This document shows positions 1,371 to 44,407 of a stretch of 64,000 bases of DNA, one piece after another. Each line of letters opens with the position of its first letter. The stretch's first letter is position 1. Source of the stretch: Amoebophrya sp. A120 (Eukaryota > Protista > Dinoflagellata); assembly GCA_905178155.1 (NCBI GenBank), contig CAJINV010000002.1, forward strand, positions 12,964,480-13,028,479, read 5' to 3'. The translations under genes were made by a program, and so were the position numbers. Under the pieces are notes generated by a model. The model had not been told where the DNA came from. It saw nothing but the letters and a program-made list of their open reading frames with translations, and searched no databases.

Positions 1371-1542
1371 CCTCACGGAAATAAAAAAGAACTCTTTTTA
1401 AATCTCACGGAAATAAAAAAGAATTATTTTTCCACTTGTTTCAGATATTTTGTAAATCTCACGGAAATCTCACGGAAATGATAAAGAATAATTCGGAGCT
1501 TCTCTGGAGCTCTTCCATACCCAGACATTTTTACATTTGATA
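1371..1542. mobile_element. Right end of a TIR introner (non-canonical intron); left end not in window
   Basis: The reverse complement of 1510-1542 (TATCAAATGTAAAAATGTCTGGGTATGGAAGAG) matches the left TIR at 30247-30279 at 30/33 nt. It is preceded by short AT-rich CTCACGGAAAT repeats, and the coding frame begins right after it. Confidence 0.8.
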
Positions 1543-14700: not shown

Positions 14701-17700
14701 CAGCGTGGGCAAGAAACTTTCCGTGTTGAACTTCACTTACTTGGGCAGCAGCATCTCCATCCGGGCGAAAGTTTCGATGGGAAGCGGGCTTTCCATTTAC
14801 GGTGATTCACGGCTAAGCGACGCCTGCTCCATTTTGACGCACGTGCACCTCGGTAGCACCTTCTCGCTGCGTTCGTTCGCGAAACTGAGCACCACCGCCT
14901 CAGTGCTGAACTTCGCCAACCTGGCGAGTGGCCTTTCCGTCCGACAATACGCCCGCGTGGGCAGCGGATTGTCCGTCACCGGCAGCAAGAACGTCCTGCA
15001 GTGCGCCCTGCTGTCCGTGATCCAATCCGTGCACCTCGGTAGCTCGTTGTCCCTGCGCGGAACGTCGAAGCAGAACCTCAGCAAAGAGTGCAGTATCCTC
15101 GGCTTCTGCGCGATCGGCAGCAGCATGAGCCTGCGAAACTTCGCGAGGCTGGGCTCGTTGACCAGCATCCTCGACTCCGTGAACCTGGGTTCGTCCATGA
15201 GCCTCCGGTCCTCGGTCCGTGTCGGCGGCGCCTGCAGTACTTTGAGCTTCTCGAACCTGGGATCCAGCTGCTCTATCCGGCAGTTCGTGCGGTGCGGTTC
15301 CAACCTGAGCGTGCTCGGTTGCTCCAGCCTCGGGTCGTGCTTGAAGCTTTCCGTCATCAACTTCACGTCGGCAGGCTCTTCGCTTTCGCTCCGTCAGTTC
15401 GCGAACTGCGGCAGCCGGATATCGGTTGTCGACTTCCTGGCCCTCGGGTCCGTTCTGTCCTTGCGAAGCAGTCGGGCCCTGTGCGGCGACAAGGTAAGTG
15501 TGCTGGACCTCCTGCACTGCGGCAGCAACTTGTCTGTGCGGGGAGTGACCCGCACCGGTTCGCGATCCTCCGTGCTCGATTGCTTTTCCTTGGGCTCTGC
15601 ACTGTCCGTTCGCACCTTCGTGAAAGTTGGAGTTTCCCTCTCCGCGATGGGTCGCGTTGCGATTGCCGGGTCCTGTCTGCAGTGCTCGGTGCTGGGCTTC
15701 GTGCACCTGGCTAGCTCGTTCTCGGTTCGCAACACCATGCGCATCGGCAGCAAGGCCTCTGTCGTGGACATGCTGAATCTCGGCAGCGCAATTTCCCTCC
15801 GATCGAGAATATCCTGTGGCAGCCGGTATTCCGTTTTGGACTACCTGCACATGGGGTCGTCAGTGTCCCTGCGCTCCCATTCGCGGCTCGGATCCATGGC
15901 CTCGGCGATCGACTTTGTCCATCTCGGCAGCAGCTTGAGCCTCCGCTCCTACTTCCGGGTGGGAAGCTCTCTGAGCGTTGCCGGCTTGACGTTCTGTGGC
16001 TCTTTGAGCAAAACCTCGGTGATCGCCAGCATGACCTTGGGAAGCACCATGTCCTTGCGTTCCGCGAGTCGGCTCGGCGACAACTTGTCAGTGCTCAACT
16101 TCACGCATTTGGCGAGCAGCTTGTCACTACGCGCGTACGCGCGTATCGGCAGCGGCGTTTCTTGCCTCGGATCGGCCAAGCTGGCGGACGGCATGTCGGT
16201 GCTGAAATACGCGCATCTGGGCTCCACACTCTCGGTGCGGAGCAGCGCTCGCTTCGGCACGCGCGTGTCCATCCTGGATTGCACAAATTTGGGCAGCTGT
16301 CTCTCGGTCAGGAACTACGCCCGCTGCGGCAGCAAGCTTTCCGTCGCGGGTTCCCAAGTGTTCGCGAACACATTCCTGTCGGTGTTGCAGCACGCGACGC
16401 TGGGCTCGAGTTTCTCGCTAAGGAACAACGTAAAATGCTCGGCCCGGTTCTCGGTCCTGACTTGCGCGGACTTCGGCAGTTCCTTGTCGTTCCGCTCCAC
16501 CGTTCGTACCGGTAGTAAGCTGAGTCTCTTGAGCTTCGTGAATCTCGGAAGCACCCTGAGCGTCCGCGCCTACGCGCGCATCGGTAGCAGCTGCTCCGCC
16601 CGGGGGCTGGTGCAGACGGGATCAGATGGGACCTTGCGCATGTCGATCATTGGCACGGTGCACCTGGGATCCAGTTTGTCTGTGCGCGGCCGCTTCAAGG
16701 TCTCCGACAACATGAGCGTGTTAAGCTTCGTGACTCTGGGTTCCGCCGTGTCCACGCGCGGTTTCACGCGATTGGGCTCTTCCACCAGCGTTCTAGGCGA
16801 CTTGCGCATCGGCGAGCAGGCCTCGGTCCTCGCCTTCGCACACCTCGGCAGTACCGTCAGCGTCCGCGGTCTCGGCCGCATGCGGTTTGCCCACCAGTTC
16901 TCGGCGCTCGACATGGTGAACCTGGGTTCTTGCGTCTCGGTCCGCAGCTTCTGCCGCGTCGGAAGCAGTTTGAGCGTGGCCGCGCGGGTGCAGGAAAGCG
17001 TCGGTTTGAGCGTCTTCGACTTCATCAACATGGGTGACAGCTTTTCCGCGCGCGACTTCGTGCGCCTGGGCAACATGATGAGTGTGCTCGACAGCTCGCA
17101 GTTCGGTTCCACTCTGTCGATGCGGCAGTTCTCCCGGTTCAGCTCGAACATTTCCCTGATCAACTTCGTGCACATGGCCTCTTCGTTATCCTTGCGCGGA
17201 GCGAAGAGCTTCGGCAGTCGCATGTCGATACTCAACCTGGTGTCTCTCGGATCCGCCCTCAGCATCCGCACCTACGCGCGCTGCGGGTCGAGTCTGAGCA
17301 TCACCGGCGGTGTGGCGTTGCCGTCCGCGATGAAGCTGTCCATCATCGGCTCGGTGGAGCTGGGAAGCGCGTTGTCGCTCCGGAACTTCTGCCGCGTCGG
17401 CGAAATGGGCAGCGTGCTTCGGTACGCGAACCTGGGTAGCGGCCTCAGTGTGCGGTCGTCCTGCCGCATGGGCTCGCGCTTCAGCGTGCTCGACATGCTC
17501 ACGTGCGGGTCCGCGCTGTCCCTGCGCTCCAAATCGCAGTGCGGTAGCCTCCTCAGTGTCCTGGACAACTTCCACCTCGGCTCCACTTTGTCCGTTCGCA
17601 GCTTCGTCCGTGGCGGCAGTTCGCTCTCCGTCCGCGGCGTGCTTGCGGTGGACTATGTGGAGAAACTGTCGGTGATCAACTACTTGCACGTGGGCTCCTC

Positions 17701-20700
17701 GATGTCCCTGCGATCGCAGTGCCGGTTCGGTAGCCGCTTGTCCATCCTGAACTACGGCTGCATGGGAAGTTCGCTTTCCATTCGACAGTACACGCGAATC
17801 GGATCGGGCGTGAGCGTTGAGGGCAACTTGAACGTGCGCGGCTCCGGCATGTTCTCGGTGTTGCAGTGCACGAACTTGGGAAGCTCGTTCTCCCTCCGTG
17901 GGCTCGCCAGATGCAGCAACAACCTCTCGATGCTGAACTTCTGCAACCTAGCCTCCGGTCTTTCGGTACGAACGTATCTGCGAATCGGGTCCTGCTTAAG
18001 CCTGGTGGGTGGCTGCCAGTCCGGCGGCCGCTTGTCTGTGCTGTCGCACGCGGAACTCGGCAGTGGTCTTTCCGTTCGCTCGGTGTGCCGGGTCGGTTCT
18101 CGCGCGTCGGTCCTGGACTGCTTGATGCTCGGCTCCACCTTGAGCATCCGGGCCGCCAGTCGCATTGGCAGCGGTTGTTCGGTGGTCGCGCAAGTGCAGC
18201 TCGGCGCCTCCATGTCGGTTTTGGACTACGTGACCTTCGGCAGCTCTCTGTCCCTCCGGCGTCATTCGCGTTTGGGCGACGGCGTCTCCATCATCAACCA
18301 CGTGAACCTGGGATCCGCGCTCAGCCTGCGTGGCTGCAGCCGGCTCGGGTCCAGTGTGAGTGTCAAGGGCTCCATGAAGTCCGCGGAGAAGCTGTCCATT
18401 CTGCAATTCAGCGGCCTCGGCAGCACCCTGTCTTGCCGCAACGGTGTGCGGCTCGGCGCGCGCTTGTCCATCGTTGATTTCCTGAACCTGGGCAGCTCGC
18501 TTTCCACGCGCGCGAACGTGCGCACCGGCAAGGCCTGCAGCACGCTGGACCACACGACCTTCGGCTCCACGCTGTCCATGCGCAGCCTGGCCCGCTTGGG
18601 ATCCGCAGTCTCGATCCTCGGCTTCTCTTCCATCGGGAGCGCGCTCTCGATCCGGGCCTTCACGCGCACCGCGGGCACGTTGTCGACCGCCGGCATGCTG
18701 GGTTGCGGCTCCATGTACTCTACCAGCGTGATTGGCTGCGCCAGCCTCGGCTCCAGTCTTTCCGTACGCAGCTTTGTGCGGCTCTCCAGCAAGGCGTCGG
18801 TGGTTGACTTCTTCCACCTCGGATCCTCCGTGTCGCTGAGGGACTACGTTCGCATCGGCAGCGGATTGTCGGTGATTGGCACAACGCTTGCGAGTGGGAA
18901 GTCCTTATCCATATTGAACGCCGCCAACTTGGGGAGCACGCTATCGCTCCGGCGAGCAGTCAGGGTTGGAGACAGCCTCTCCGTACTGAGCTTTGTGCAG
19001 ACAGGATCTACACTTTCCCTGCGGGCTGTCTGCCGACTCGGGTCGAGTTTGTCGGTCCAGGGGTCCGGAAGAGCCGCCGAGCAGCTCTCGGTTCTGTCCT
19101 GCGTCCACCTTGGTAGCACGTTCTCACTGCGGGACTCGGGCAGACTCGGGTCGAACATCTCGCTGCTGTCCTTCCTCGCCGTGGGATCATCGATTAGCCT
19201 TCGTAGCTACGCCAGATCGGGGAATGCAATTTCGGTCCTCGACTACGTGAATCTCGGGTCGGCGCTTTCGTTGCGCAGCCACATGAGAACGGGCTCCCTC
19301 GTCTCTGTCCTGGACGCGGCGACCCTCGGCTCCGCTCTCTCAATCCGCTCCTTCTTGCGGTGCGGAAGTGGCTGCAGCGTCCGCGGTCTCGGCGTTGTCG
19401 GCAGCGCACAGACCGAAGCGTTCAGCGTGTGCGGCAGTCTGATCCTGTCCAGCAACCTGTCCCTTCGCCAGTTTGCCCGCGTCGGCGGAGCCATTTCCAC
19501 CCTGCAGTTCACGCACCTGGGAAGCACACTCTCGATGAGATCCGGCACGCGGCTCGCGGGTGACATCAGCGTGCTGCACTACAGCAATCTCGGCAGTGCT
19601 CTGTCCGTAAGAAGCCACGCAAGATCGGGTTCGCGCATGTCCATCCTGGATTTGCTCTCCCTGGGCAGTTCGATGTCGGTGCGCGCAATCGCGCGGTGCG
19701 GCTCAACCGTGTCCGCACACGGACTGACTAGCTGCGGTTCTCTGTCAAAACTGTCGGTGCTCAGCTTCATGCAGCTGGGCTCCTCGCTTTCCGTGCGCAG
19801 CACAGGCCGGTTCGGCAGTTCACTATCGGTGCTCGATTTCCTGACCCTGGGATCCAGTGTAAGCCTTCGCGGAAGCGCAAGATTGCACAGCTCCTTGACC
19901 GTGATTGCTTTCGCGCAGGTGGGAAGCTCTCTTTCCATTCGGTCGACGGCTCACATGGGATCCAGAGCGAGCATCCTGGACTTCACCACCTTCGGGTCGA
20001 CGATCAGTATCCGGCAGCTGTCGCGCCTTGGCAGCTCGCTATCTGTATTAGGCCTTGCCGCCAGTGGCAGTGTCACGTCCGTCTCAGTCGTGGGCTTTGC
20101 GCACCTGGGAAGCACTCTGTCGCTGCGATCGATGGCCAGGCTGCGAGCCAACAGTTCGGTTCTTGACTTCGTCCAGCTCGGATCCTCGCTCAGCGTCCGC
20201 GCAGCGACCAGATTCGGCAGCGGCATGTCGGTTGCCGGCGTTGCCCGAACCGGTGGTGCTCTGATGCTCTCGGTCCTGAACTTCGCCAACTGCGCTAGCA
20301 CGGTCAGTATTCGGGCCATCGCGTCGAAATCGCGGTACGGCATCAGCGTTTTGGACTTCCTGAACCTCGGCAGTGCGGTTTCCTGCCGCAACGTGGCGAA
20401 GCTCGGGTCCTGCATGTCGATCACCGGCCGGGGCCGCATCATGGGCGATGGTCTATCGGTGCTGCAACAAGTCAGCCTTGGCTCCAGCTTGTCTCTGCGT
20501 TCCGTGACCCGCTTCGGTAGCAAGACTTCGATCCTGAGCTTCTTCACGGTTGGGTCCTCCTTCTCGTTGCGTAGCACGACCAGATTCGGCCACCAAATTT
20601 CCGTGCTGGACTTTGTCAACCTGGGCAGCAGCATCAGCGTCCGGAAGATGATTCGCCTGGGAAGCTCCGCGAGCGTGCAAGGCTTGGCGCAGGTGGGTAG

Positions 20701-23700
20701 CCTGTCAAAACTGAGTGTCTTCGACAGCATCACGCTCAGCTCGACGTTGTCTCTCCGCCGCATGGCCTCGTTCGCCGACACCATGTCGATTTTGGACTCG
20801 GTTTCCGTGGGTTCTTCGCTTTCGTTGCGCGCAATCGGGCGCATGGGCTCGGCAATGTCCGTCTCGAAGACCACCGCCTTCAATGACAAGGTGAGCGTTC
20901 TGAATTTCGCCGCTCTGGGTAGCGCACTGTCGGTGCGCGGCTTGAAGACCCGCTGCGAAGGCCGTGCCAGCGTGTTCGACTTCCTGGCCCTGGGCTCTGC
21001 CGTCTCCATCCGGTCGGTCGCCACCCTGGGATCCAGCTTCTCGATCGCGGGCGCGCACGCGCGCTTCGGCGGGTCAGCCTACACTTCCGTGTTGGATTCG
21101 ATCCAACTCGGCAGCTCGATGTCGCTCCGCAGCTTCTGCCGGTTGGGTGCAAACGTCAGTGTCCTGGAATTTGTCCACATCGCGTCGTCGCTGTCGCTCC
21201 GTAGCACCGGGCGCGCCGGGATCAACTTGTCCGTCTTTGATGCGATGTCCACCGGCTCCTCCATTAGCGTGCGCGGAGTCACAAGGATGTCAAGCCGCAT
21301 GTCGGTGTTGGACTGCCTGAAGCTGGGCAGCTCGGTGTCCGTCCGGGCCTTCAGTCGCTTGGGCTCCGGCGTGAGCGCCGTTGGCTTGGTCAGCTGCGGC
21401 AGTACCTTGAAGATGTCGGTGCTGAATTGGTGCACTCTGGGGTCGAGTTTGTCTATCCGGAACACTTCCCGGTTCGGATCGCGCATTTCCGTCCTGGATT
21501 TCCTGAACATCGGATCCAGCCTGTCCCTCCGGTCCCACGTGCCGATCAGCGGTAAAGCTTCGGTGCTGTCCTTCACACACCTCAGTTCCGCGTTGTCGAC
21601 GCGGGCGATCGCGAAACAAGGCTCCAGGTGCTCTGTTCTCAGCTTCCTGCACTTGGGCTCCACGCTCTCGGTCCGCCAATTCGCGTGCACCGGCGTGAGC
21701 CTGACGGTTCGGGGACTCGCGGCAGCGGGCTCTTGCTTCCAGATGTCGGTGATCGATGCGGTCAATCTGGGTAGCGCCTTATCCGTCCGCTCGTTCGTGA
21801 AGATCGGCTCCAGAGCGTCGGTTCTCGATTACCTGAACCTGGGTTCTTCGGTCAGTCTGCGCACATTGAGTCGCATGAGCAGTAGTCTTTCCATCGGCGG
21901 CCCGCAGATGCAGGCGCAGGCGCGCCTGTCGCTGCACAACCAAGTGCACCTGGGCTCGACACTGTCCTTGCGCAACAAGCTTGGTTGCAGCACGACTGCT
22001 TCCGTGCTCGACATGTGCAACCTGGCGTCCTCGCTCAGCCTCCGACAGTACGTGCGGTTGGGTTCGAGCCTCAGCGTTGCGCAGGCGTCCGCCCCCATCG
22101 GCGGGAAACTGTCCGTTTTGTCGTACGCCAACCTGGGAAGTGGCCTTTCCGTGCGTTGCAGCGCACGCTACGGCTCGCGCTGCTCGATTGTGGATCTCTT
22201 CAACCTGGGCAGCTCCATTTCCATCCGCAACTTCTTGAAGTGCGGCAGCAGCCTGTCGGTGAAGGGCGATTTGAACTTGATCGACCCGCTGTCCCTGCTG
22301 GAATTCACGCGTCTGGGCTCTTCTTTCTCCGTCCGGAAGTACGCCAGATTCAGCTCCTCGCTGAGCGTCATGGACAACATCGCCATCGGATCCGGCATCT
22401 CGATTCGTAACTACACGCGTATCGGTTCGGCCTTCTCCATGGTCGGCAAGGGCCGATTCGGAAACAAGATGAGCATCCTGCAGCAGGCGAGCCTCGGGAG
22501 CACATTGTCAGTACGCGCCGTCATTCGCGCGGGCTCCCGGGCCTCAGTTCTGCATTGCCTAGACCTGGGCAGCAGTTTGAGCTTGCGCAGCCAGATGCGG
22601 TTTGGTAGTCACTTCTCCGTGTTGAGCTTCGTGAACTGCGGATCCGACATGAGCATCCGAGCCAAAGGCGGCGTCGGCACCAGGGCGAGCGTGCTGGACT
22701 GCTTCAGTTTGGGCTCCGTTTTGTCGATTCGCGGCTTCGTGCGGGTGGGCTCCAATCTGTCCGCGCACGGCATCGTGCGAACGGTGAGCAGCTGCTTCGC
22801 AGCCTCTGTCCTGCAGGCCGCGACCGTCGGGAGCTCGTTGTCGGTCCGCGCGGCAGCTCGGTTCGGCAGTAAATGTTCTGTCATGGATTTGTTCCGGATG
22901 GGTAGCAGCATCAGTGTTCGCGCGATGACGCGACTAGGCTCCGGTATGTCGGTTGCGGCCCGAGCAGCAGCAAGCGGCAGTGCCAGCGTGATTGCGTACA
23001 TGCACCTGGGCTCCGGCTTGAGTGTGCGTGGTGCAGTCAGACTGGGCAGTCGTGCGAGCGTCGTGAACTTCTTGCACCTGGGCTCCGCACTTTCCGTGCG
23101 GGCGATCAGCCGTGTGGGATCCGGAGTTTCCGTGTGCGGCGCCTGCAACCTCAACAGCAGTGTGTCCGTCTTGAACTTTGCGCAGCTCGGCTCCACGTTC
23201 TCGTTCCGCAACTTTGGGCGCATCAGTAGCCACTGCAGCATTCTCGACGCCGTGACTTGCGGTTCCAGTATCTCCGTCCGACATGGACATTGCAGAGTCG
23301 GTACGAAAATCTCCGTCTTGGACTACTTGCGAATGGGATCCGCGATCTCAGTGCGGTCGATGTCCGCCGCGGGATCGAAGGCCAGCCTAATGGATATGTG
23401 CGCGCTCGGATCAAGTATCTCCGTCCGGGCCTACGTACGGCAGGGAACCGCAACTAGCCTGAAGGGCCTAGCAACGGTTGGATCCCTGCAGAAGATGTCC
23501 GTCATCGGCTGCGTCAACCTGGGCTCTACCCTCTCCCTGCGTTCGATCACAAGGACCGGAAGCCGAGCTAGCGTGCTGGACTTCCTCCACTCGGCCAGCA
23601 GCCTCTCGCTTCGCGCCCTCTCGCGCATCGGCAGCGGACTTTCCGTCGCTTCGTCGCTCGTCTTCGGGTCGTCTCGCATCAGCGTGCTCGACGCCAGCCA

Positions 23701-26700
23701 CCTTGGCAGCGCGCTGTCCTGCCGCGGCATTGTGCGGTGCGGAAGTCGGGTCTCGGTCTTCGATTGCCTGGCTTTGGGATCGACTGTTTCGGTCCGCGCA
23801 GCGTCGCGTCTCGGCTCGGCGGTTTCCGTGGAAAGCAAGTTGCGACTCGGAACCAACCTTTCCGTTCTGAACTTCGTCAACTTCGGCAGCAGCTTCTCCC
23901 TTCGCGCATTCTCGAAGTGCGGGAAGAACCTCAGTGTGCTGGACTTCGTGTTCCTGGGCAGCGCCATCAGTGTCCGGCAGTTCGCTCGCTTCGGCAGCAG
24001 CATCAGCGTGTCCTCGCAGAGTCTCCCGATTCCGGGCCGACTCTCGGTTCTAAACATGGCTTCCCTCGGGAGTTCGCTTTCCGTCCGCAACACCGTCCGC
24101 TGCGGCAGCCGCGCGTCAGTGTTCGACACGTTCGCGCTGGCATCCTCGATGTCGCTGCGCGCGGTGGTCCGACTGGGATCCAACTTGTCTGTCCTGGGCA
24201 CGACGCGCGTCGGCGATGACATCTCGGTTTTGGGCTACGCCCACATGGGCAGCACCTTCTCTGTCCGCGGAATCACCAGGTTTGGCTCACGTGCGAGCAC
24301 ACTCGACTTCGTCGGCGTCGGCAGTTCGCTGTCCCTTCGCGGCTTCAGTCGGGTCGCACTTTCCAGTTCGGTGAAGGGACTCACGCGCATCGGAAGCTGC
24401 TTCCAGGCCAGCGTAGTTAACTGCGTCAGCCTGGGCTCTTCACTATCCGTGAGGCAGATGTGTCGCGTTGGCAGCGCCATCTCGGTGTTGGATTTCACCC
24501 AAGTTGCCTCCACTCTGTCGCTCCGTAGCGCGATCCGCCTCGGTAGCTCCCTCTCCGTGCACAAGTTCACCACGGCGCAAGCCAAGCTTTCCGTGCTGGA
24601 CGCTTCAAACCTCGCGTCTTCGCTCTCCGTGCGGAACTTCTTCGCGGCGGGATCGCGTGCTTCCGTGCTCGACTTCCTTGCGCTCGGTAGCACGGTTTCG
24701 CTCCGCGCGGTCGCTCGCGTGCACAGCAGTGTGAGCATTGTGGGCACAAACGCGGCGGTGAACCCGAGGCTGTCCATCCTGAACATGGCCACGCTCGGCT
24801 CCGCGCTTTCCCTGCGCGGACAGCAAAGAATAGGAAGTTCGTGCTCGGTACTGAACTACCTAAACATGGCGAGTTCCCTGTCGGTCCGCGCTGTGGTTCG
24901 CATGGGCAGCGCCGTTTCGGTTGGCTCCAGCTTGAAGTGCAGCGGGTCGATGTCGGTTTTGGCCGCGACACACTTAAGTTCGGCTCTCTCCGTCCGCGCG
25001 GCGAGCCGCTGCGGCAGCAAACTCTCCGTTTTGGACCTGTTTGCACTGGGATCCGCACTCAGTATCCGCGGTCTCGCGCGCGTCGGGTCCGGGTTCAGCT
25101 GCAACGGAGCGGCTCGCGTCGGCGGCAACGTGTCCGTGATGAAGTTGGCCGCGTTGGGCAGTACGCTTTCCGTTCGGGCGGCGGCAAAGCTCGGTTCCAA
25201 GGCCTCGCTGTTTGACATGCTGGCGTTGGGCTCCACGGTCTCTATCCGCGCCTTCAGCCGGCATGGCTCAGCCATCAGCGTCCGCGGACTCGGTGTCTTC
25301 GGCTCGTGCAGTATGCTCTCAGTGATCAACGCGGTCCATTGCGGCTCCACCTTATCCATCCGAAGCTACGCGCGCCTCGGCAGTTCGCTGTCGGTCGTGC
25401 AGGCCAAGAATTTGAGCAATAAGTGCAGTGTGCTGGATCGGGTGGCGCTGGGTTCGGCTTTGTCGGTGCGTAGCACGACCAGGTTCGGCTCCCGCACCTC
25501 GATCATAGACTACCTGCATATCGGAAGCTCGGTGTCGATTCGGTCGTTCGTGCGGCTGTCCTCCACCGTGTCCGCCGCGGGCATCACAAGGTGCGGCTCG
25601 CTCACGCAGCTGTCGATCATTGATGCGGTGTCCTGCGGAAGCTCCCTCTCGATCCGCGGCATCTCCAGGTGCGGTAGCAACGTCTCGGTGCTCGACTACT
25701 TCCGCATCGGCAGCAGTGTGTCTGTGCGGCAAATGACCAGAATCGGCAGCTGCATGTCCGTCAACGGTGTTGCGCGCACCGGTGTGCACGCTTCCATCCT
25801 GAACTGCGTCGGCATTGGCTCCGCGCTTTCCGTCCGCGGAGTCAGCCGCCTCGGCTCGCGCGTGAGCATCCTGGACTTGATGCACTTGGGCTCGACCTTC
25901 TCAATCCGAAACTTCGTCCGCGTCGGCAGCACACTGTCGGTGAGCAACGTCTCGAGATTGCAGGCCGTCAGCGTCTGTCAGACGCTGGTCTGCGGCTCTG
26001 CACTCTCCGTCCGCGGAAACCTGCGCGTTGGTCTGCGCGCCGACCGCAGTGGCGCCAGTCTGCTGAGCTTCGTCAACCTGGGCTCGCAACTGTCCGTCCG
26101 CACACACGCGCGCGTTGGCAGTCGGGCATCCGTGTTGGACTTCCTGAACCTCGGGAGTGCCCTCAGCGTTCGCGGCGTGGCGCGCCTGTCGAGCTCCCTG
26201 TCGTGTACCGGCGATATCCTGATCTCGCACCGCCTGTCTCTGATTCACTCGATGAACGTTGGGTCCTCGCTTTCGCTCCGCAGCGTCGGGCGGGAACCCT
26301 TCGTCGGTGGCAGAATAAGCATGATGGACCAGTTCCTTCTGGGTAGTTCGATGTCATTGCGCAACCTCGCCCGGTTTGGGGGCTCCCTCTCCGTTCTCAA
26401 CTGTGTGCAGATCGGCTCCACGTTGTCGGTCAGGCAGTACGTGAAGATCGGCAGCAGAGTTTCGTGCGACGGCAACTTCCGCGCGCAAGGCAGCAAGGGC
26501 TTTTCCGTCGTCGGCTATGCACATATCGGTAGCGCGCTGAGTGTCCGGAACCTGAGTCGGGTCAACCTGGGCAAGAAGTTGTCCGTTTTGGACTGCCTCG
26601 CACTCGGAAGCAGCGTAAGCATCCGGGCTTTTGTTCGCGGAACGAACGCCTGCTCCATGAAGGGATGTTTGTCCAGCGTTGGGAGTTGCCTGCAGGTCTC

Positions 26701-29700
26701 AATCCTGAGTCAACTGCAGGTCGGCTCAGCTCTGTCTGTCCGGTCCGTCTCACGGTTCGGCTCTCGCATGTCTGTCCTTGATTGCCTAGCCCTTGGCTCC
26801 GCCATCTCGGTGCGCGACTTTGCGCGGGTGCAGGGAGCTGTTTCAGCACAGAGCGACCTTCGCGGCGTGACGCAACTGAGTGTGCAACAACTCGGACAGA
26901 TCGGAAGTACCTTGTCCGTTCGCACGTACGCACGGTTCGGCTCTCGCATGTCCGTCCTCGACTGCTTGGCCATCGGCAGCACGTTCTCGGTTCGCGCGAT
27001 GGCGCGGTGCGGCAGCGGTGCCTCGATCGTCGGTAGCACAGAACTCAGCCAGAAGATCTCCGTGCTGAACTTCTCGAATCTGGGTTCGTCCCTCTCCATT
27101 CGAAGCACCAGCAGGCTCGGGTCAAAACTGTCTACGGTGGATTGCCTGGCGCTAGCAAGCTCTTTGTCTGTTCGTGCGATTGTTCGACTGGGCGGAGACC
27201 TTTCCACGAGTGGGGCGCAAATCCTGCAAGCGAACGTGTCGCTGCTGAGCCAGACAACGGTTGGCAGCACCCTCTCAATCCGTGCGGCAACGAGATGTGG
27301 CAGCCGGGTCTCAGTGCTCGACTTGTTCCAGCTCGGTTCGTCGTTATCCGTCCGAAATTGCGTCCGCATGGGTTCCGCCCTCTCGGTGACCGGTCGCACC
27401 GCGGTTGGCTCGCTGTACAGCACTTCGGTCGTGCAGTGCACCGCGCTTGGCAGCGCCCTGTCGATCCGCTCGATCGCTCGAGCCGGCTCCCGATGCAGTG
27501 TGGTCGACATGTTCGCGCTCAGCTCCAGCATCTCCCTGCGGCATTTCGCGAAACTCGGGTCCTCGCTCAGCATCGCTGGTTCAAAGGTCATCTTCGGCGC
27601 AGCACGCCTGTCGGTTCTGGATAGCGTCACTCTCGGGTCCAGCCTGAGTCTGCGAAACAAGGGCCGCGTCGGCGATCGCGTATCCGTTCTGGACAAGCTG
27701 ATGTTGGGGAGTTCGCTGTCAGTGCGAGCCTCCGCTCGCTTCGGCAGCTCTCTGTCTGTGAACGGACGCCAACTAGTTGGCGGAAACTGCAGCGTCCTGC
27801 AGTTCACGGCACTCAGCAGCTCATTGTCCATTCGGGCGGTCATCCGGGCCGGTTCGCGCCTTTCGATCCTGGATCTGTGCAACCTCGGATCGTCCATCTC
27901 CCTGCGCGCTGCGGTCCGCATTGGCTCGGGGCTTTCGGCGATCGGCTACACGGCTGTCGGAAGCGTGACCAAACTGTCGCTGGTGCAGCACCTCACCCTG
28001 GGCTCCAGCCTCTCGATAAGAAGTACAGGCACCGGCGGAGGCCGAGCCTCCGTCTTGAACTATTTGCAGCTCGGCTCCAGTGTGTCGGTTCGAAACTACG
28101 CGAAGATGGGCTCCAGTATGTCTGTCGTCGGTGGCGGAAAAGTGGGCAAGCACCTCAGCATTCTGAACTTCACGAACTTCGGCAGCAGCATGTCGTTCCG
28201 CAACCATTGCCGCGTGGGAGGCACCGCGTCGATTCTCAGCTTCATTCAGCTGGGATCCTCCCTGTCAGTGCGACAGTACTTGCGCAGCGGCAGCTCCTGC
28301 AGCATCCTGGGGAGCTGTCGCACCGGCCTGCAGGCCTCCGTATTGAGCTGCGCCGCTCTCGGCAGTGCGCTCTCGGTCCGGAACGCCATGCGGTTGGGTA
28401 GTCGCGTTTCTGTTTTGGACTGCTTGAACCTGGGCTCTGCACTTTCCGTACGCGGCTTCGTGCGATTGGGCAGCAGCTGCAGCACGGTCGGCGTGATGGA
28501 GTTCGGCTCCCTGTACCGTTGCAGCGTCCACGACTTCACGAAATTGGCAAGCACGTTGTCCATCCGCAGCTTCGTCCGGCTCGGCTCCCGGGCCTCGGTG
28601 CTCGATTTCATGACGCTCGGCTCGGGCATGAGCATTCGAACCATGGGCCGAGTGGGATCCGGCGTCTCGGTCTGCGGCGCGCAAGCTCGGGTGCAGTCGC
28701 ACCTGTCGGTGTTAGACCTCACGAACTTGAGCAGCACGCTGTCTCTCCGCGGCGCTTCGCGGTGCGGAAAACAGCTCACGATCCTGCAATTCGCCAATCT
28801 CGCAAGTGCGCTTTCGGTGCGGTCGACTGCAAGAATCGGCTCAAAGACGTCGGTTCTCGACCTGCTTGCGCTTGGCAGCGCGCTGAGTGTACGTGGCATT
28901 ACCAGATGCGGCAGTACTTTGTCGGTCGTGGAACCAACGCGCCTTTCCAGCAAGTTCAGCGCGCTGAACCTGGCACAGCTGGGCAGCTCGCTTTCTTTAC
29001 GCGGCCTCGGCAAGAGTGGCAGCAGATGCTCTGTACTCGATTTCATGTCGCTGGGCAGCGCGGTCTCCGTTCGGTCCTTCGTGCGGTACGGTTCCGCTTT
29101 GTCCATCACCAGCGGCGATCGCATCGGGGCCATCTCGCTGTACACGCGCATCAACTGCGGCAGTGCGCTTTCCGTGCGGGGGGTTACCCGTCTGGGCTCT
29201 CGCGCGTCTGTGCTAAACTGCCTGCACCTGGGGAGCTCCCTCTCTCTCCGCGGCTTCATCAGGTCGGCCTCGGCCACCAGCGCCAAGGGCTTCCTCGCCG
29301 TCGGCAGCATGGGCCGGACGTCCGTGATCGACTTCGTCAACGTCAGCAGCTCGCTCTCAGTCCGCGCGGCCTCGCGCCTGGGAGAACGGTTATCCGTCCT
29401 GGACTTCATGAACCTCGGGTCGTCGGTTTCGCTCCGCGCGGTGGGACGGCTCGGCTCGGCGCTCAGCATTTCTGCAACGCAGACGCGAATCTGCGGCATG
29501 GTATCGGTGACAGAGCAACTGCACAGCGGCTCCGCCCTCAGCCTACGATCATTCGCACGCACGGGCTCTCGCGCCTCTGTTCTGTCCTACGCGCAGTTGG
29601 GATCCGCGCTCTCGATTCGGGCCGCCGGCAGGTGTGGTAGCAAGCTTTCGATCCTCGACCTCTTCAACTGCGGGAGTAGCCTGTCGGTTCGAGGCTTCGC

Positions 29701-32700
29701 GAGACTCGGCAGCAACCTCTCGTGCTTCATCGGTACGCACGCGACCATACCGAATTGGAACAGGAGAACCGATAAAGCCGGAGGAAAGCTATCCGTCGTC
29801 GGATGCACGAACTTCGGTTCGGGCGTGTCTCTGCGACACAAGTGCAAGTTCGGCGGCAGACTTTCCGTGCTCGACTTCACAATCATCGGGTCGTCCCTGA
29901 GCATGCGATCGAAAACCCAGACCGGCAAATGCATCAGCGTGCTCGACTCCGCCTGCTTCGGGTCTGGGCTTTCGCTCCGGTCCTTCGTGCGCGCGCCGAA
30001 GACCGCGTCCTGCCTCGCGTTTGCGACGCTCGGTAGCGCTTTGTCCGTCCGCAGTAAGGTTCGCACCAGCAGCAGGTGCTCCGTGCTCGATTTCGCGAAC
30101 TTCGGATCCACGCTGAGTGTGCGCGGAGCCTGCCGGTTCGGCAGCCGGGCATCGGTGTTGGATTGCCTCAACCTCGGCAGCAGCATCTCGATGCGGGCGT
30201 ACAGCCGGCTGGGTAGCAGCGTCTCCATTGCCTCCAGCGTCATCTTTATCAAATGCAAAAGTGTCTGGGTCTGGAAGAGTGCATGCTTGCCTGGCCTGAC
30301 TCTTAAATCTGTCATGCACGTTACCCACGTTACCCAGAAGGCTCGGCTGAAGTTGGGTTTTAGGATTTTGGCTTCCAAAAATCGACAGGGGTCTGGGCTT
30401 CCAAAATCCTAAAACCCAGTTTGTCATGCAGAAAAATAGGCAACACCTAGGAGCCCAAAAATTTGTCATGCTGTGCCAACACAACTTGTGGCCTCCTCAT
30501 GATAGTACAAGTACGCCACCCAGCATCACAAATTTATTCCAGACCCAGACCTATTCGCAGTTCATAATCTTCAACGGCGCCTCGTACCCGTTGTCAGTCG
30601 TGCAGCAAATCGACCTCGGCAGCACGTTGAGCGTGCGGGGCGCCACCCGGTGCGGTAGCAAACTGTCCGTCCTCGATTGCCTCCACCTTGGCAGCGGCAT
30701 GAGCATCCGCTCCTTCCTCCGCTGCGGTTCTAACGTCTCCGTTGCGGGGGCGCTCGTGTTCGGCTCGATCACACACATCAGCCTGCTGAACCACGTGAAC
30801 CTGGGAAGCACTCTTTCGGTGCGCACCCACTTCCGGTGCGGCAGCCGCGCCTCCGTTCTCGACTACCTCCACGTGGGCGCAAGTCTGTCGGTCCGTAACC
30901 GAGCGCAGATCGGCACCAACACCTCAGTGCTGGAATTGGTGAATCTCGGCAGTTCGGTCTCCCTGCGCGTCTGTACCAAGCTCGGCTCCAGGCTGTCCGT
31001 GCTGAACTTCGTGCACTGTGGGAGCTCGTTGTCCGTCCGTGGAAGGACCACCAGTGGCGCGACCGGACGAATGTCCGTGTTCAACATGTTCGCTCTGGGC
31101 AGCAGCATCTCTGTGCGCGCCGCGACTCGACTGGGCTCCAACCTTTCCCTCGCCGGAAAACCGCTCTTGGGCGACGGCGCGTCGGTGTTGCAGCGAATGA
31201 ACCTCGGATCGGCCCTGAGCCTGAGAAGCACCAGTAGGTTGGGTAGCTGCGCTTCCATCCTGAGCTTCGCCATGCTCGGCTCCGCCTTGTCCATTCGAAA
31301 CTTCGCCCGGTGCGGCAGCTCGCTCTCCGTGCATTCCGTGTGCAAGGCGCTGGGCTCCGTCTCCAAGGTGTCGGTGGTAAACTTCCAGGCTATGGGCAGC
31401 TCGCTTTCCGTCCGCAGTACCGTCCGTCTCGGGTCCAAATGCTCGGTGTGCGACCACTTTGCGCTCGGAAGTACCCTCAGCCTCCGATCCTTCGTGCGGG
31501 CAGATGACCGCGTTTCCGTACTCGGGTATCTGCACCTCGGCAGCTCGCTGTCACTGCGTGCGGCGAGCCGGTTCGGCTCCGGCATGAGCGTTTATGGCGA
31601 AGTGCCGCTCGGCGACAAGTTCTCCGTGCTCAACTTCCAGGGCTTGGGCAGCAGCCTGTCTATCCGCGGCCGGCTGACCAACCACATGCGTGTCAGTGTG
31701 CTCGACTGCCTCACCCTGGGCAGCAGCGTCTCGCTGCGCGCGGTCAGCCGCCTGGGCTCCGGTCTTTCGGTGAAAGGACTCGTGCGCGGGTGCATCGGCA
31801 GCAACCCGTTCATCGGGCTGAGCCACAGCAAGTCCGTGATTGAGCACGTGCACCTCGGCAGCAGTTTATCCGTCCGCGGGTACCTGCGGGCCGGTGAGAA
31901 GCTCAGCGTGCTGGGCTTCGTGCACTGCGCGTCCACCCTGTCCGTGCGGGGCATCAACAAGTTTGGCAGCCGCCTCAGCCTGTTCGACACCCTGGCTCTC
32001 GGCTCCGCGATCAGCCTCCGCCACTTCATGCGGCTGGGCTCCGCGTTGTCCGTCGAAACCGCCGATTTGGATTTGTCCGGCAGCCAGTACACCAAGATCC
32101 GGAAGGACAGCGTCAGCGGCTACCTCTCGGTGGCGCAGCAGGCCTTCATCGGCAGTTCGTTCTCCCTGCGGGGCTTCGCGAAGATGGGCAGTCGGTTGTC
32201 GACGCTCGACTTCATGCTCCTGGGCAGCAGCGTGTCCATCCGAAGCTTCAGCCGCCTGGGTAGTTCGCTCTCAATGCACGCGGGATTGTGCGGCTTCGGT
32301 TCCAGCATTGACAACGGGTCATCGAAAGGATTGTCCATCACGCAGCACATGAACGTCGCGAGTACGCTTTCGCTGCGGGGCGTTGCCTACATGGGTTCCC
32401 GCCACAGCGTGCTCAACTACCTCAACCTCGGGTCCGCTCTGTCGGTCCGAGGTGCGGGGCGGTTCGGCTCGCGGGCCAGCGTGCTCGACTTCCTGATGTG
32501 CGGGTCCACAGTGTCGACTCGTGCCTTTGTGCGGACCGGCAGTTCCTGTTCGGTGGTGGGCAGGGGGCGGCTCCAAGGCGAGCTCTCGCTCCTAGACATG
32601 GTCACGGTCGGCAGCTCGCTCTCCATGCGCAGCTACCTGCGGTTAGAAGGAAAGCTGTCGCTGTACAACACCGGTCGCGTCGGTGGCCGCGCTTCCCTGA

Positions 32701-35700
32701 TGGACATCGCCATGTTGGGAAGTATGCTGTCCCTGCGGTCCATGACCCGGCTTGGCTCCTCGACGTCGCTCTTCAGCAATTGCCGGGTCGCCGGCAACGT
32801 GAGCATTCTCTCGTTCCTCAGCACGGGCAGCTCGCTGTCCGTCCGGGGAGCGATCCGGGCCGGCTCTCGAGCATCCGTGTTCGACTGCCTCGCGCTGGGG
32901 TCGAGCATGTCGCTCAGATCCTTCGTTCGCCTCAACAGCGGCCTGTCTGTGGCGGGACGATTCGGTATTTCTTTTGAAATCATGGTGCTTGTTAATGCCC
33001 TTTTGATACAAAGTAGTGAGCAACCACCTGTGTGATGTTCTGATTTTTCTCCAACAATACCAAAAGGCGTAAAACGTCATAGGTCGCGAGCGCATGATGA
33101 AACTTTTCCCAAAACGTACACAACAGATCTGCCAAGCGTCTCCTCGTTGTCGGTGGTGCAGTGCACGAGCCTCGGGTCCTCCTTGAGCGTCCGAGGATTC
33201 ACCAGGGTATGATATTTTCTATACCATTTTGATTTTTGATGCAATTGGTTTATTTCGAAACCTGAAGACTCAGGCTGAATCTGGCAATAGACGTGATGGT
33301 GATCAAGATCTTCACTATTACGACGATGGACTTTTTTTTCTGGCGGCGGCCACCAGGACTTTTTTTGCTCCGTGGTGTGTGACCACCAGGACTCTTTTTG
33401 CTCCGTGGTGTGTGGCCACCAGGACTTCTCTTGCTGGTGGTGACCACCAGGACTTTTTTTGCTCCGTGGTGACCGCCAGGACTTTTTTTGCTCCGTGGTG
33501 TGTGACCACCAGGACTCTTTTTGCTCCGTGGTGTGTGGCCACCAGGACTTCTCTTGCTGGTGGTGACCACCAGGACTTTTTTTGCTCCGTGGTGTGTGAC
33601 CACCAGGACTTTTTTTTCTGGCGGCGGCCACCAGGACTTCTCTTGCTTTGTGGTGGCCACCAGGACTTCTCTTGCTTTGTGGTGGCCAACAGGACTTCTC
33701 TTGCTGGTGGTGACCACCAGGACTTTTTTTGCTCCGTGGTGTGTGACCACCAGGACTTCTCTTGCTTGAGCGTCCGAGGATTCACAAGGGTATCACGACT
33801 TTTTTTTTGAATTTGATGCAATTGGTTTAAGTAAGTATTTCGAAACCTGAGCCTACTAGCAATAGACGTGATGGCGATCAAGATCTTCACCATTACGACG
33901 ATGTGATAGCAAAACCATCAATGATCAGCATCAGATGTGAAGATAGTGAAACTGCATGCGTTATTCCTCCCTTGACATTCAAAAAAACCAACTATACCAG
34001 CTTTCGTCAAGGGCCAGCGTGCTGGATTACATGCACATTGGTAGCTGCTTGAGCGTCCGGGGCCAAGTTTTGTCCGGTACCAAGCTGCACCGTTCCGCGT
34101 CCGTGATGGACTTCTTGACTCTGGGCAACGCCATGTCGATCCGTTGCTTCACCCACAAGGGCGGCCCGCCACGCGTCTCAGTCTTCGACTTTGTCACGTT
34201 GGGCTCCGCTCTGTCGGTCCGCAGCAGAATCCGGTGCGGATCGTCCTGCTCGGTAACATGATAAAAACGTTACTTTGCTTGATTTTTTTCCTTTTGTTCG
34301 GTTTTATTCTTGCATTACATCAGTTTCGATGTCCTTGCGCATCTCATATCAGCAGAGAATGATTACACGATGAAATGTTAGTTCATCTTACCTCAACCTT
34401 CTACGCCAAAAAACTTTCATCATCCTCAGGTTCTGGATATGGCGAGATTCGGCTCGAGCCTATCGCTCCGGCAAAATGCGCGATTAGGAAGCCGGGTTTC
34501 AGTCATTAACTTCCTAAACCTGGGCTCGTGCCTATCGGTGCGCGCACCTGGCAAGGTACGGTGTAGCGGCAAAGCGTCGGTCCTGAACTTCGTGGCCCTG
34601 GGATCCGGTCTTTCTGTGCGTAGCTTCTCACGACTCGGCAGCACGCTGTCGGCGGCCGGAAACCTCGCAACCGGCAAGTTCTCCGTCTCGCAACAAATGA
34701 CTGCCGGATCCACGCTCTCAGTTCGTGGATTCTCCAGATTTGGTATGATCTACAGTTTCACATAACTTTTCTTTTTCGGTACTTCTACTTCTCGCAGCAC
34801 TTCTAAAGTAAGTAGATTTAAAATTCCAAGAACATGAACTTGTGGGCGAAGATGAAAAAGCCTCCAGTAAGAAATCCGCAACGATTCATCGGAGAAATCA
34901 AACACTACAGGTTCTAGAGCCAGTGTTCTGGACATGTTCCAGCTGGGATCGCAACTCAGCGTACGGGGCTTCGTGCGGTGCAATTCGGCACTGAGCGCCG
35001 TCGGCTTGGTTGCGGCGGGCTCGATTTCCAAGCTGTCCGTCGCGCAGATGACGCACATCGGATCGTACTTTTTTACCATCTGTTTCTTTTTTTTCCTCAT
35101 GATGATGTTGCAAAAAAATAAGACTCTAACCCACCGGGTGCTGTCATGCCTTAAATTCTAAATTCATGTTTGCCATCTTTCCCATAACAACCATTCACAG
35201 GTCCTTGTCGATCCGCGGTGCGATGCGGTGTGGCAGTCGCGCTTCCCTTTTGGATTGTCTGCATCTGGGCTCCACGGTCTCGTTGCGCGCCGTCTGCCGG
35301 CTCGGTAGCAGCGCGTCGGCGTATGGACGATCAAGTGTGCAAAGCACGTGCAGTGTGATGGATTCGACCTTCCTGGGATCCGGAATCAGTCTGCGTTCCT
35401 TCGCCACGATTAGCAGCCGATTCTCCGTGATTGACATGCTCCGAATCGGTATACAAACTGTTTCTTCAACATGTTCTTTGTTTCAAAGACCTTTCCTCGA
35501 TTCTCCGCTCCAATAGCGATCTTGGTGAGTTAGTTCTCTTCGAGCCATTTCCATTTACGATTGCCACTGTATATCAATGCATCCCATCAAAAAACCGCAG
35601 GTTCGTCGGTGTCCCTCCGTGCATTCGGCCGCCTTAGCTCATCGGTGAGTGTGTACCAAGCGCTGCAGTCCGGCGGCAATTGCAGTGTGCTGAAATTTGC

Positions 35701-38347
35701 GACTCTGGCGTCTACTTTGTCCATCCGAGCCGCGGCGCGGCTGGGCAGCCGCGCTAGCGTGCTCGACATGCTCTCCTTGGGTAGCAGCATGTCCGTACGA
35801 GCGGCATCTCGTCTGGGCAGCAGCCTGTCGGTGAACACCCTCCGTTGTACGCAGGTCGGCCAGTGCTCGGTGGTGCAGTACGTGCACTGCGGTTCGTCCC
35901 TGTCGACAAGAAGCATCATGCGGTTCGGCTCTCGAATGAGCCTGTTCGACACCATCGCGCTGGGCTCCGGATTGAGCATCCGCGCATCCACGAGGTAAGT
36001 GCGTGCTTTGAACTTTTAGTGAAAGAAAATGTAAAAGAGCATCGAATGAATCAGAGTGAACCATTCGCATCAGATTGACACCGAGTGGTAGTGTTCTTGT
36101 TGATGGCGCAACTAACTGGAGTTGAGTTTAATGTGATACTAGTATGCGCAACTACTTCTAAGATTCATTTTCTTCTATCACATGAACTACAGGTTGGGCT
36201 CCGCGCTCTCGGTCCACGGAACGGGTGTCGTGGGTGGCGTCAGCATCATCGACCGCGTTGCGTTCGGCTCCTGCCTGAGTCTGCGCGGCATTGCAAGAAT
36301 GGGCTCAAGAGGCTCGGTGATCAACTTCCTGTCCCTCGGCTCGAGCATGTCCGTCCGGTCGTACACGCGACTCGGAAGCTCGCTGTCCATCGGTGCGGCA
36401 CCTGCAGCTGTCGGAGGTAATATTCTTGTTGAAGCCCTCTACTATTTCGCACTGATGCGCATTTTTCTCCTCGTCGAACGACAATGATTTTTCTTCTCCT
36501 TTTTAGTTTGTACGACCCGATAACGCTGACAAAAAAATGACTCACAGGTAAACTCTCCTTGACTTCTGCCCTGCACGTTGGCTCGTCCTTGTCGTTGCGT
36601 GGCAGAGTCAGAATGGGCAGCAGATGCAGCATTCTCAGTCACGTCTCGTTGGGCAGCACCCTATCGGTATTTGATTTTTTCCTTTAGTTCTTTCGCAGTT
36701 GCATCAGCTCGATCACCTTCTGCTGTTGTGCCTGAAATTTATTTTTAGAGAAAACACGAATCGATGATCCACTTTGTTTTCGTGAAAAAACGCAAAATCT
36801 TTTTGTCGCAAATTCCATAACAGCTCCGGACGTTTGGACGAGGACGGATCGGTGATGCGATGTCGATCCTGGACTTCGCAAGCATCGGCAGTGCGCTCTC
36901 CATTCGCAGCTTCTTGCGACTCGGCAGCGCCTTGTCTGTGAAAGGCACCATGCGCACGGACAGCACCTCAGGCACCGCTCGGGTCGTCAGCATCGACGGC
37001 AACGAGATCAAGGCTAATACCGCACTGATGACGGCCAACAACGGTTTAACGGGCACCTCCGGGTTCTCGACGGTTGCAACAGGCGACGAACCATCACTGC
37101 TCTTCAGCCTAACGAGCAACACCGCAATGAGTATAGAGAATTTGATTCATGATTTTCTTTTTGACGTACTGCTGAATATGTCGTCTTTGTCTTTCACCAC
37201 CGAAACTTGAGAAATACGACCAGCTTCTGTTCACAAAAACCATGAACCCATGTTCACAAAAACCATGAACCTCTTCAGGTATGGAATACGATATCGGCAA
37301 CACAAATGCGGTCTTTGGTCACTTGACTGGAACGTGGACCTTCGATAGCGGAAGTATCACCATGTCAGACCGACGCGTGAAGACCGACATTGCACCGCTA
37401 ATGCGCGAACTGATGCAATTGTCACAACAGGTACAAACTCGAAATAGCTGCTTTTTCTTTCACGACTCAAATCGACTGGCGCACTTCGTTTTCGCTTCTT
37501 TCCTACTTACGTTGATGTCATAGGATTGGTGTAGTTGCATTTGCAAATCCAAATGCTGAAGATAGACAATGGATTAGCGAACTATGTTTGAGTGATCTTT
37601 ACGTATCTATCCATACAAAAACGCAAAACACAGTCTCACGCCTCCGGAGCCAGTGACGTTGAGCAGTACAAGAGCGTGAACGCCACCAGCGGCGACCTCG
37701 CCACACTGAACGTGATTAACCAGCTGAGGCCGGTTAGCTACCACTACAAGGCGGCCATGGAGAGTAAGTACAGCCGATTCGGTTTTGTCGCCCAGGAGGT
37801 GCAGGAGGTGCTCCCCGCGCTGGTGGGCACGACGCCCTCGGGCTACAAGGTCCTGAACCTGAAGGACCTGATCTCGGTGCTCACCCTGGGTCTGCAGTCC
37901 CTGGACCGCGTTACGGCGGAAATGGAGGTCGCAATCGACGAGCTCAACGCCAAGGTCGACTACCACGAGGAGGTTTTGACCACCAGAATTTCCGCGGCCG
38001 AAGAAGAACTCTTTGGCGAACTCATTCACCGGCTGCTCCAAGAGGAACAGGTACAATGTTGATATATGCTCTGCTTCTACTAGAAAAGTGAACTATGCCC
38101 GCGAGAGTTGTACGGAAAAATGACAGAATCCGGCCCTTGTTTTTGCTAACCTGTCTTGCATAATACCGATTCAGTTTCTTTGCCAGAAAATGCAATCATC
38201 CCGAAACACACCACGCCACAGATTGAAATCCTGCCGGACCCTGCGATTCGCAAGATCTTGGGTAACGAAACGGCGGAGTGGTATTTCAATGCCTCGGCGA
38301 CGGATTTACGAAATCCGGACCGGCCAACAGCAGCCCTGACTCCATAA
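1543..38347 (+). CDS. Giant (>=~11,200 aa, 5'-incomplete) 12-residue-repeat fibre-like protein with C-terminal Peptidase S74/ICA autocleavage-chaperone domain; multi-exon
   Basis: Manually inferred exons: 1543-5762, 6014-30246, 30572-32964, 33127-33206, 34001-34252, 34430-34742, 34911-35064, 35201-35448, 35601-35994, 36193-36416, 36548-36666, 36824-37130, 37279-37430, 37634-38050, 38222-38347. They sum to 33,632 nt (2 nt partial codon + 11,210 codons including the stop). Junctions keep the frame, and within the repeat region the repeat register (e.g. QFARCG|SSMSV, SSVIF|NGASY, GFTR|LSSRASVLDY, RFG|SRASVLD). No N-terminus lies in the window. Confidence 0.88.
5763..6008. mobile_element. 246-bp TIR introner with 5-bp direct repeat GCGGA (non-canonical intron)
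   Basis: Ends are TATCCAATGCAAATATGTCTGGGTCTGCATGAG ... CTCATCCAGACCCAGACACTTTTGCATTTCATA. GCGGA lies at 5758-5762 and 6009-6013. Removing 251 nt exactly joins the two ORF frames. No GT-AG or GC-AG pair exists in any sliding position of the direct repeat. Confidence 0.9.
6014..30246 (+). CDS. 24.2-kb single exon (~8,080 aa of 12-residue repeats)
   Basis: Stop-free, GC-rich, continuous LGSSLS(L/V)R / SVLDF repeats, bounded on both sides by TIR introners. Confidence 0.93.
30247..30566. mobile_element. 320-bp TIR introner with 5-bp direct repeat ATCTT (non-canonical intron)
   Basis: Ends are TATCAAATGCAAAAGTGTCTGGGTCTGGAA ... TTCCAGACCCAGACCTATTCGCAGTTCATA. ATCTT lies at 30242-30246 and 30567-30571. 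Removing 325 nt restores the frame. Confidence 0.9.
30572..32964 (+). CDS. Third visible exon of the giant repeat protein
   Basis: The repeat frame resumes after the ATCTT direct repeat and ends at the GTATTT donor at 32965. Confidence 0.9.
33127..37130 (+). CDS. Nine short exons carrying the last repeats and the non-repeat neck (TDSTSGTARVVSIDGNEIKANT...)
   Basis: GC-rich repeat-coding blocks alternate with AT-rich GTA...CAG introns, and the phases are compatible at every junction. Confidence 0.85.
33328..33764. repeat. Intronic minisatellite, ~14 variant units of ~29-32 bp (core CCACCAGGACTT)
   Basis: Units such as CCACCAGGACTTTTTTTGCTCCGTGGTGTGTGA and CCACCAGGACTTCTCTTGCTGGTGGTGA alternate inside intron 33207-34000. 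Confidence 0.92.
33765..33903 (+). repeat. Diverged duplicate of the exon-end/intron-start segment 33182-33328
   Basis: CTTGAGCGTCCGAGGATTCAC(C/A)AGGGTAT ... TTTGATGCAATTGGTTTA ... GCAATAGACGTGATGG.GATCAAGATCTTCAC.ATTACGACGATG occurs on both sides of the minisatellite. Confidence 0.88.
37279..38050 (+). CDS. Peptidase S74 / intramolecular chaperone autocleavage (ICA) domain plus coiled coil, two exons
   Basis: Motifs ITM-SDRRVKTDIAPL (Ser codon 37365, Lys codon 37380), INQLRPVSYHYK, RFGFVAQEVQEVLPALV and LNLKDLISVLTLGLQSL followed by a heptad-like helix. Recognised by eye as the motif order of endosialidase/tail-fibre chaperones and the MYRF ICA domain. Confidence 0.85.
38222..38347 (+). CDS. 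Probable terminal exon (IEILPDPAIRK...AALTP*)
   Basis: Phase-0 donor at 38051. The A/C-rich acceptor CCACGCCACAG ending at 38221 matches the other acceptors. Alternative AGs at 38174 and 38186 give a different open frame and cannot be excluded. Confidence 0.55.
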   Translation: MEILPDPAIRKILGNETAEWYFNASATDLRNPDRPTAALTP

Positions 38348-44212: not shown

Positions 44213-44307
44213 TGGGCGGGCTTCTTTGTTTGGGCCAGCCTGCTTCCTCGCGCGCGCGCTTGGGCGCACCGGCAAGCTGTTGAAGCCCCGCAAAAATTCA
44301 GAAGCGG

Positions 44308-44407
44308 NNNNNNNNNNNNNNNNNNNNNNNNNNNNNNNNNNNNNNNNNNNNNNNNNNNNNNNNNNNNNNNNNNNNNNNNNNNNNNNNNNNNNNNNNNNNN
44401 NNNNNNN
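44308..44407. other. Assembly gap (100 N) inside the satellite
   Basis: Run of 100 N with satellite sequence on both sides; true array length unknown. Confidence 0.99.

Follow-up and report, generated by a model that had tools for sequence, protein, structure and literature searches.

Element E2, 320 nt at 30247-30566 of the window (the whole 64-kb stretch of Amoebophrya sp. A120 DNA analysed here), is a real non-canonical introner that is removed exactly. It runs from TAT (30247) to ATA (30566) between two copies of ATCTT, and it is of a published kind, already known from this organism. We consider it very probable that E2 is a MITE-like introner and that it is cut from the pre-mRNA by machinery reading its paired ends and not GT-AG sites. 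The locus bears on how introns free of such signals are removed, as it gives natural variants that separate the parts: one copy is spliced without interior motifs, in another an arm has decayed, and the imperfect duplications of some relatives could locate the cut. To the published picture we add an internal motif, a spliced copy that lacks it, the two orientations of the elements and a way to map the cut.

Table 1. Coordinates of E2, its sister copies and the host gene features in the window
Feature	Position	Strand	Evidence or remark
E0, right end only (1510-1542), then TCTTC	1510..1547	+	Left end outside the window
E1, sister element of 246 nt (5763-6008) with GCGGA duplications	5758..6013	+	Repeats, ends, X4 contig
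Host gene exon of 24.2 kb from E1 to E2, coding for S/L/G/V-rich repeat protein	6009..30246	+	ORF map, translation
E2 left target-site duplication, ATCTT	30242..30246	+	Read from sequence; 5 ambiguous letters at the joint in the X3 contig
E2 left terminal inverted repeat, TAT + 7 nt + AAAA ... GTCTGGGTCTGGAAGA	30247..30278	+	Inverted-repeat search, end alignment
E2 interior, diverged member of the 252-nt subfamily	30279..30536	+	Alignment to relatives
Internal 18-bp hairpin of E2, arms 30354-30371 and 30401-30418	30354..30418	+	Sequence, fold, alignment
E2 right terminal inverted repeat	30537..30566	+	Most decayed of the five window ends, 24/30 to its partner
E2 right target-site duplication, ATCTT	30567..30571	+	Read from sequence
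Ordinary GT-AG intron of the host gene, 162 nt, positive control	32965..33126	+	Skipped by 111 raw X12 RNA reads and by the X3 contig without E2
Probable downstream exon, Peptidase_S74 intramolecular chaperone domain	37625..38056	+	PF13884, E 3e-11

Six of 13 sequencing runs were compared with the window, as contigs (X1, X3 and X4) or raw RNA reads (X11, X12 and X13). In X3, an 11,591-nt contig covers 28400-30241 and resumes at 30567, a skip of 325 nt with five ambiguous letters, so that the cDNA junction called for by the earlier note is present as an exact skip in one transcript-type assembled contig. This joined form is the main X3 contig, with the same depth as the flanks (57.1), and none of the X3 contigs listed holds a flank together with retained E2, although contigs drop rare forms. 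The RNA status of X3 and X4 is a guess; the X3 contig also lacks the GT-AG intron at 32965-33126. X1 keeps this 162-nt intron and thus behaves as DNA. Its single-copy contigs enter E2 from both sides, and no joined form occurs among the X1 contigs listed from this one DNA run. In X4, one contig covers 1543-5757 and resumes gaplessly at 6009, showing that E1 is lost exactly, as 251 nt. The contig aligns from 1543 and its 1565 nt upstream are not placed on 700-1542 among the listed matches, which suggests that E0 is removed too and begins further upstream. Each junction is seen in one contig per element, the raw-read runs X11, X12 and X13 covering neither that of E1 nor that of E2; X11 and X13 reads match only short repeats from other loci. 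In X13, 866 raw RNA reads are confined to the short repeat at 1304-1338 and carry other flanks, and so stem from a copy at another, well-expressed locus.

Removal of the 325 nt yields SSVIF-NGASY, the restored frame that had been predicted from the letters, and removal of E1 and E2 together (251 + 325 nt) fuses three reading frames into a stop-free frame of 10,304 aa from 1545 to 33035. If E2 is retained, the frame of the gene hits a stop, and the element has stops in all three frames. Because the duplication makes the cut position ambiguous, six cuts are equivalent (AT-TA, TC-AA, CT-AT, TT-TC, TT-CT and TA-TT); GT-AG, GC-AG and AT-AC ends are found at none of the six, so the ends expected of standard U2 or U12 introns are absent. 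Rfam, which includes self-splicing introns, had no match within the 64-kb window at gathering score.

The host gene (1543-38350) would encode more than 10,300 aa of S/L/G/V-rich repeats, with 21% Ser and 0.3% Pro. By eye, its 3' part contains roughly a dozen GT-AG introns. The stop that closes the 10,304-aa frame lies within the first of them (window 33035-33206), and since transcripts skip this intron and continue, the real host protein is longer than 10,304 aa. The S74 exon, whose best named homologue is from Amoebophrya sp. A25 (48%) and whose homologues include none from A120, is a probable part of the repeat gene on sequence grounds, the homologue P0001 joining repeats and S74; Peptidase_S74 domains are those found in phage tail fibres. 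Pfam gave no match for the repeat exon or for three downstream ORFs. Long X3 and X4 contigs (9-40 kb) match the window only in short pieces, which suggests paralogues. An intron of about 795 nt at 33207-34001 contains a 33-bp tandem array (33328-33766) and, at about 33765-33900, a duplicate of the sequence where the exon before it ends and the intron starts; X12 reads pass from 33206 to the sequence at 34002. Further downstream, 40320-45430 is occupied by a 358-bp satellite (5.6 copies, 99% alike, plus relatives) that is broken by a segment of 1.3 kb (42887-44212), whose inverted arms measure 60 nt, and by an assembly gap of 100 N. Inverted-repeat pairs at 61143-61782 and 55896-55989 are without clear flanking duplication.

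The termini of E2 are shared with those of 5763-6008 and 1510-1542, as the earlier note had recognized. When the five ends of the family in the window are compared in all 10 pairs, 23-28 of 30 positions are alike, against a chance expectation of 0.003 for a match of at least 23/30 in the window, and no other site in the window lies within 9 mismatches of 27. Four of the five ends show TAT, then seven nucleotides, then three or more A; the exception is the right end of E2, with GAA in place of the A run. The direct repeat is ATCTT at E2 and GCGGA at E1, both read in the sequence as described before. E0 is a long, probably nested element; the part of it inside the window (1-1542) combines GC-rich repeats with a tandem repeat of 109 bp, at X1 depths in the thousands.

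Membership of E2 in an introner family, first proposed from the three copies in the window, gains support from many X1 contigs and from elements at other loci. The X1 bin with the left end of E2 has a summed depth of 730,001 and the bin of the E2 interior one of 34,273, whereas the flanks stay near 60, a measure that shows many relatives and not copy number; this left end is common to hundreds of other X1 contigs. A metagenome contig scan with a 32-nt end pattern gave at least 133 loci with 132 complete elements; the 80 loci whose contigs were listed all lie on assembly JACKZZ01. Because these relatives were picked by their ends and come from another assembly, end conservation at positions 1-32 is partly circular. 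Among the 130 relatives with both flanks, the 5-bp duplication was exact in 116, had one mismatch in nine and more than one in five; duplications of 4 bp or of 6-8 bp were found in none. The exact duplications are distinct in 105 of 116 cases and show no strong base preference, and shuffled pairing gave a mean of 1.1 exact matches and a maximum of 5. These are therefore true target-site duplications, and the claim that the differing repeats record independent insertions is supported. On either strand, 104-105 of the 116 relatives allow no GT-AG, GC-AG or AT-AC cut. Stops in all three frames occur on 237 of 256 relative strands, and these elements with terminal inverted repeats and a fixed duplication have no coding capacity, as is characteristic of MITEs. 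Seven imperfect duplications could be given a strand: their mismatches fall at positions 1, 2, 4 and 5, and in the likely frame three are synonymous, one changes G to E and three are unreadable. With this spread and these mixed codon effects, no cut site follows. Across the scanned loci, neighbouring elements lie 29-122 nt apart in 13 of 26 gaps, which makes the exons between such copies very short.

One relative splits RPB1 (RNA polymerase II) between DTAVK and TSETG and carries in-frame stops. The joined motif is continuous in 120 of 120 homologues, which views the unoccupied site at the protein level only. Given this continuity and the in-frame stops, the RPB1 copy must be removed exactly. 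The top named matches of this RPB1 are dinoflagellates and Perkinsus (43-47%) and one fungal fragment (38%); its nearest match reaches 73%. RPB1 holds one more copy of the family (L043:1201-2172), which an internal insertion has enlarged to 972 nt and which keeps the 5-bp duplication.

The interior of E2 had been described as unrelated to that of its sister, and for this pair the description stands: the local score between E1 and E2 is 18, against 23-31 for the top ten of 200 shuffles. Family-wide it does not: with 55 of 128 relatives the E2 interior scores higher than any shuffle (best 121 vs 28), and it forms long alignment blocks with the 252-nt subfamily. Nor are only the termini conserved, as had been concluded. 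When interiors were aligned over the relatives, the comparison that the earlier note had asked for, 91% of 1770 pairs (60 of the 128 short relatives) lay above the 99th shuffle percentile, with a median identity of 89% between nearest neighbours, 62% between random pairs and 47% in shuffles. The interiors are thus homologous and fall into subfamilies with lengths near 262, 252 and 251; E1 is the oddity. Its AT-rich orphan interior, with an 11-bp tandem repeat, stands barely above shuffles against relatives (best 30 vs 24). X1 contig pieces match two of the relatives' subfamilies (21 and 14 elements), so these subfamilies are present in the organism of the window too. The stretch around the internal hairpin of E2 is private and has no counterpart in aligned relatives, where 25 other letters take up the interval from 30327 to 30412.

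Repeated motifs stand at fixed positions in these interiors. Of the 128 relatives, 125 contain TGTCATGC, E2 has three copies of it (30310, 30422 and 30464), and T[GC]T[CG]ATGC peaks at 41-43, 73-75, 126 and 165 nt from an end; control introns in the motif comparison had coordinates set by eye, off by 1-2 nt. The E2 interior also holds GCATCACA at 30523 and short tandem duplications. TGTCATGC is absent from E1. That E1 is motif-less yet removed exactly means that neither motif is needed for removal, and it is on this ground, and not on conservation of the termini alone, that the earlier proposal of a splicing signal in the ends survives. Orientation was judged with a self-trained codon model that assigned the coding strand with confidence at 54 of 130 junctions and agreed in eight of eight same-locus pairs. 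The relatives lie in both orientations, 24 one way and 29 the other (53 in all, p 0.58), also within subfamilies. Together, the splicing of motif-less E1 and the use of both orientations suggest that the ends probably direct splicing and that the interior motifs probably serve transposition. By analogy with MITEs such as Emigrant, which carry subterminal transposase-binding motifs (PMC1636448), the internal motifs may bind a putative transposase. The 11-bp repeat of E1 and the length peaks at 251-252 and 262 had suggested a role for helical phase (bent DNA). This was rejected, as AA/TT periodicity of 10-11 bp is confined to 4 of 128 relatives and the length peaks are the subfamilies.

The ends of each element can pair. 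The E2 arms are 31 nt long and 81% complementary by inverted-repeat search, and end-to-end folds have z -4.58 for E2 and z -6.02 for E1. Compensatory changes between the arms, a further check set by the earlier note, found weak evidence. Covariation appeared only at positions 10 (p 0.0005-0.03) and 14 (p <0.001-0.09), where it is weak, fades as subfamilies are made finer and may be ancestry; at positions 4, 5, 7 and 15 the relatives show none. G-U pairs were not favoured over C-A mismatches at variable arm positions (44 vs 59, p 0.17). With such scant covariation and no G-U excess, selection for RNA pairing is not demonstrated.

We propose that the E2 family spread as a non-autonomous DNA transposon, moved by a transposase acting in trans. 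This enzyme would cut any sequence alike, with a stagger of 5 nt, and it probably binds the ends together with the repeated internal T[GC]T[CG]ATGC motifs. In the transcript the arms would pair into a stem of about 30 bp, which places the two copies of the duplication next to each other; the cut may then fall within these copies, made by a modified spliceosome or associated factor. With the duplications juxtaposed by the stem and the cut inside them, host codons would be restored at any target and in either orientation. A scarless cassette that inserts anywhere and either way round would explain how tens of thousands of genic insertions are tolerated. A stricter version, possible but held only tentatively, is a machine with two signals, in which the symmetric end pair alone turns any insert into an exact, orientation-independent intron by a route free of dinucleotide signals, possibly a non-spliceosomal one, and the T[GC]T[CG]ATGC array at fixed distances consists of binding sites for an undescribed transposase that makes 5-bp duplications. 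If so, a genome-wide map of the cut site could be drawn from the one-mismatch duplications (9 of 130).

The scant covariation also suits an alternative in which a protein or small RNA reads the terminal sequence itself and the cut is measured from there, with arm pairing incidental. The missing excess of tolerated wobbles points the same way, as do the near-invariant core at end positions 16-30, a pattern that is partly circular, and the removal of E2 despite arms that match at only 24/30. In RNA, however, the two ends are reverse complements of each other, which would oblige the reader to recognize two different sequences, and the inverted-repeat families reported by Farhat et al., hundreds to thousands in number, are without a shared splice signature, which favours structure. 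We regard direct reading of the sequence as unlikely, though as a serious competitor to recognition of the paired ends.

The remaining alternatives concern the junction. All of the junction evidence is of cDNA type, and a stable stem, 5-nt direct repeats and the lack of canonical sites would suit a reverse transcriptase that switches template across the hairpin between the short direct repeats, the element itself staying in the cell's RNA; artefacts of this sort have been reported by Houseley and Tollervey (PMC2923612). Retention would nevertheless truncate the protein, and in the RPB1 relative it would break an invariant motif of an essential gene with in-frame stops. The joined form is, moreover, the main X3 contig at flank depth (57.1), with no retained form among the contigs listed, and we find a template switch very improbable. 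Marginally less credible still is precise excision from DNA, programmed or somatic, with the transcript copying the excised template. The transposon anatomy would fit it, and exact loss of an element with one duplication resembles DNA elimination in ciliates; against it, single-copy X1 contigs enter the element, and no joined contig is among those listed from the one DNA run. An ordinary spliceosome could in principle use internal sites near the ends and leave a few extra codons, as GT at 30263 or 30269 with AG at 30560 gives frame-restoring lengths of 298 and 292. The joint observed in X3, 30241/30567 (+5), differs from these and contradicts internal canonical sites, and this reading has next to no credit with us.

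The E2 family is MITE-like in being short, non-coding and present in many copies, with terminal inverted repeats, a duplication of fixed length and repeated internal motifs. It is unlike MITEs in that it is removed exactly from mRNA and has no known cognate transposase. Its 5-bp duplication and TAT ends together fit no transposon superfamily tested. The hAT transposons make an 8-bp duplication, or one of 5 bp in the hAT5 group; a duplication of the 8-bp hAT type was found in none of the 130 relatives. Introners of Micromonas and Aureococcus are likewise transposon-derived, with direct and inverted repeats, in the summary given by PMC7789003; those of Aureococcus are described there with canonical splice motifs, whereas E2 has none.

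A search of article text, mostly from openly accessible journals, found no paper devoted to the mechanism or the internal motifs of these elements. Introners of A120 itself have been described with inverted repeats, direct repeats of 3-5 nt, a hairpin model and a resemblance to MITEs (Farhat et al. 2021, PMC7789003). Their ends open with TAT, followed by seven variable nucleotides and then three or more A, the non-canonical introns average 240 nt with 29,850 repeated introns, and U1 snRNA went undetected in both A25 and A120 (PMC7789003). A review gives the same picture of Amoebophrya introners (PMC11282704), and a paper on another strain describes such elements as confined to part of the genus (PMC12005148). 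More recently, Gozashti et al. 2025 distinguished 58 introner families in A120 (PMC12130899), among them fam12 (331 copies, 252-260 bp, TIR 33 or 72, classed as TIR DNA of unknown superfamily) and fam100 (256-261 bp, TIR 30). By description only, and among 22 of the 58 A120 families, fam12 and fam100 match the E2 family in size and structure. The Farhat 2021 passages on these elements do not mention the internal repeated motifs and the orientation found here and do not fix the intron border, although figures of the cited papers and two supplement files may show the motif. Compared with that account, in which inverted repeats are 8-20 nt and the commonest direct repeat is 4 nt, the E2 family differs in having inverted repeats of about 30 nt and direct repeats of exactly 5 nt. 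It agrees with the A120 introners of Farhat 2021 in its non-canonical boundaries, its paired inverted ends, its direct repeats (5 bp in the legend of Fig. S19), its TAT + 7 + AAA ends and its size.
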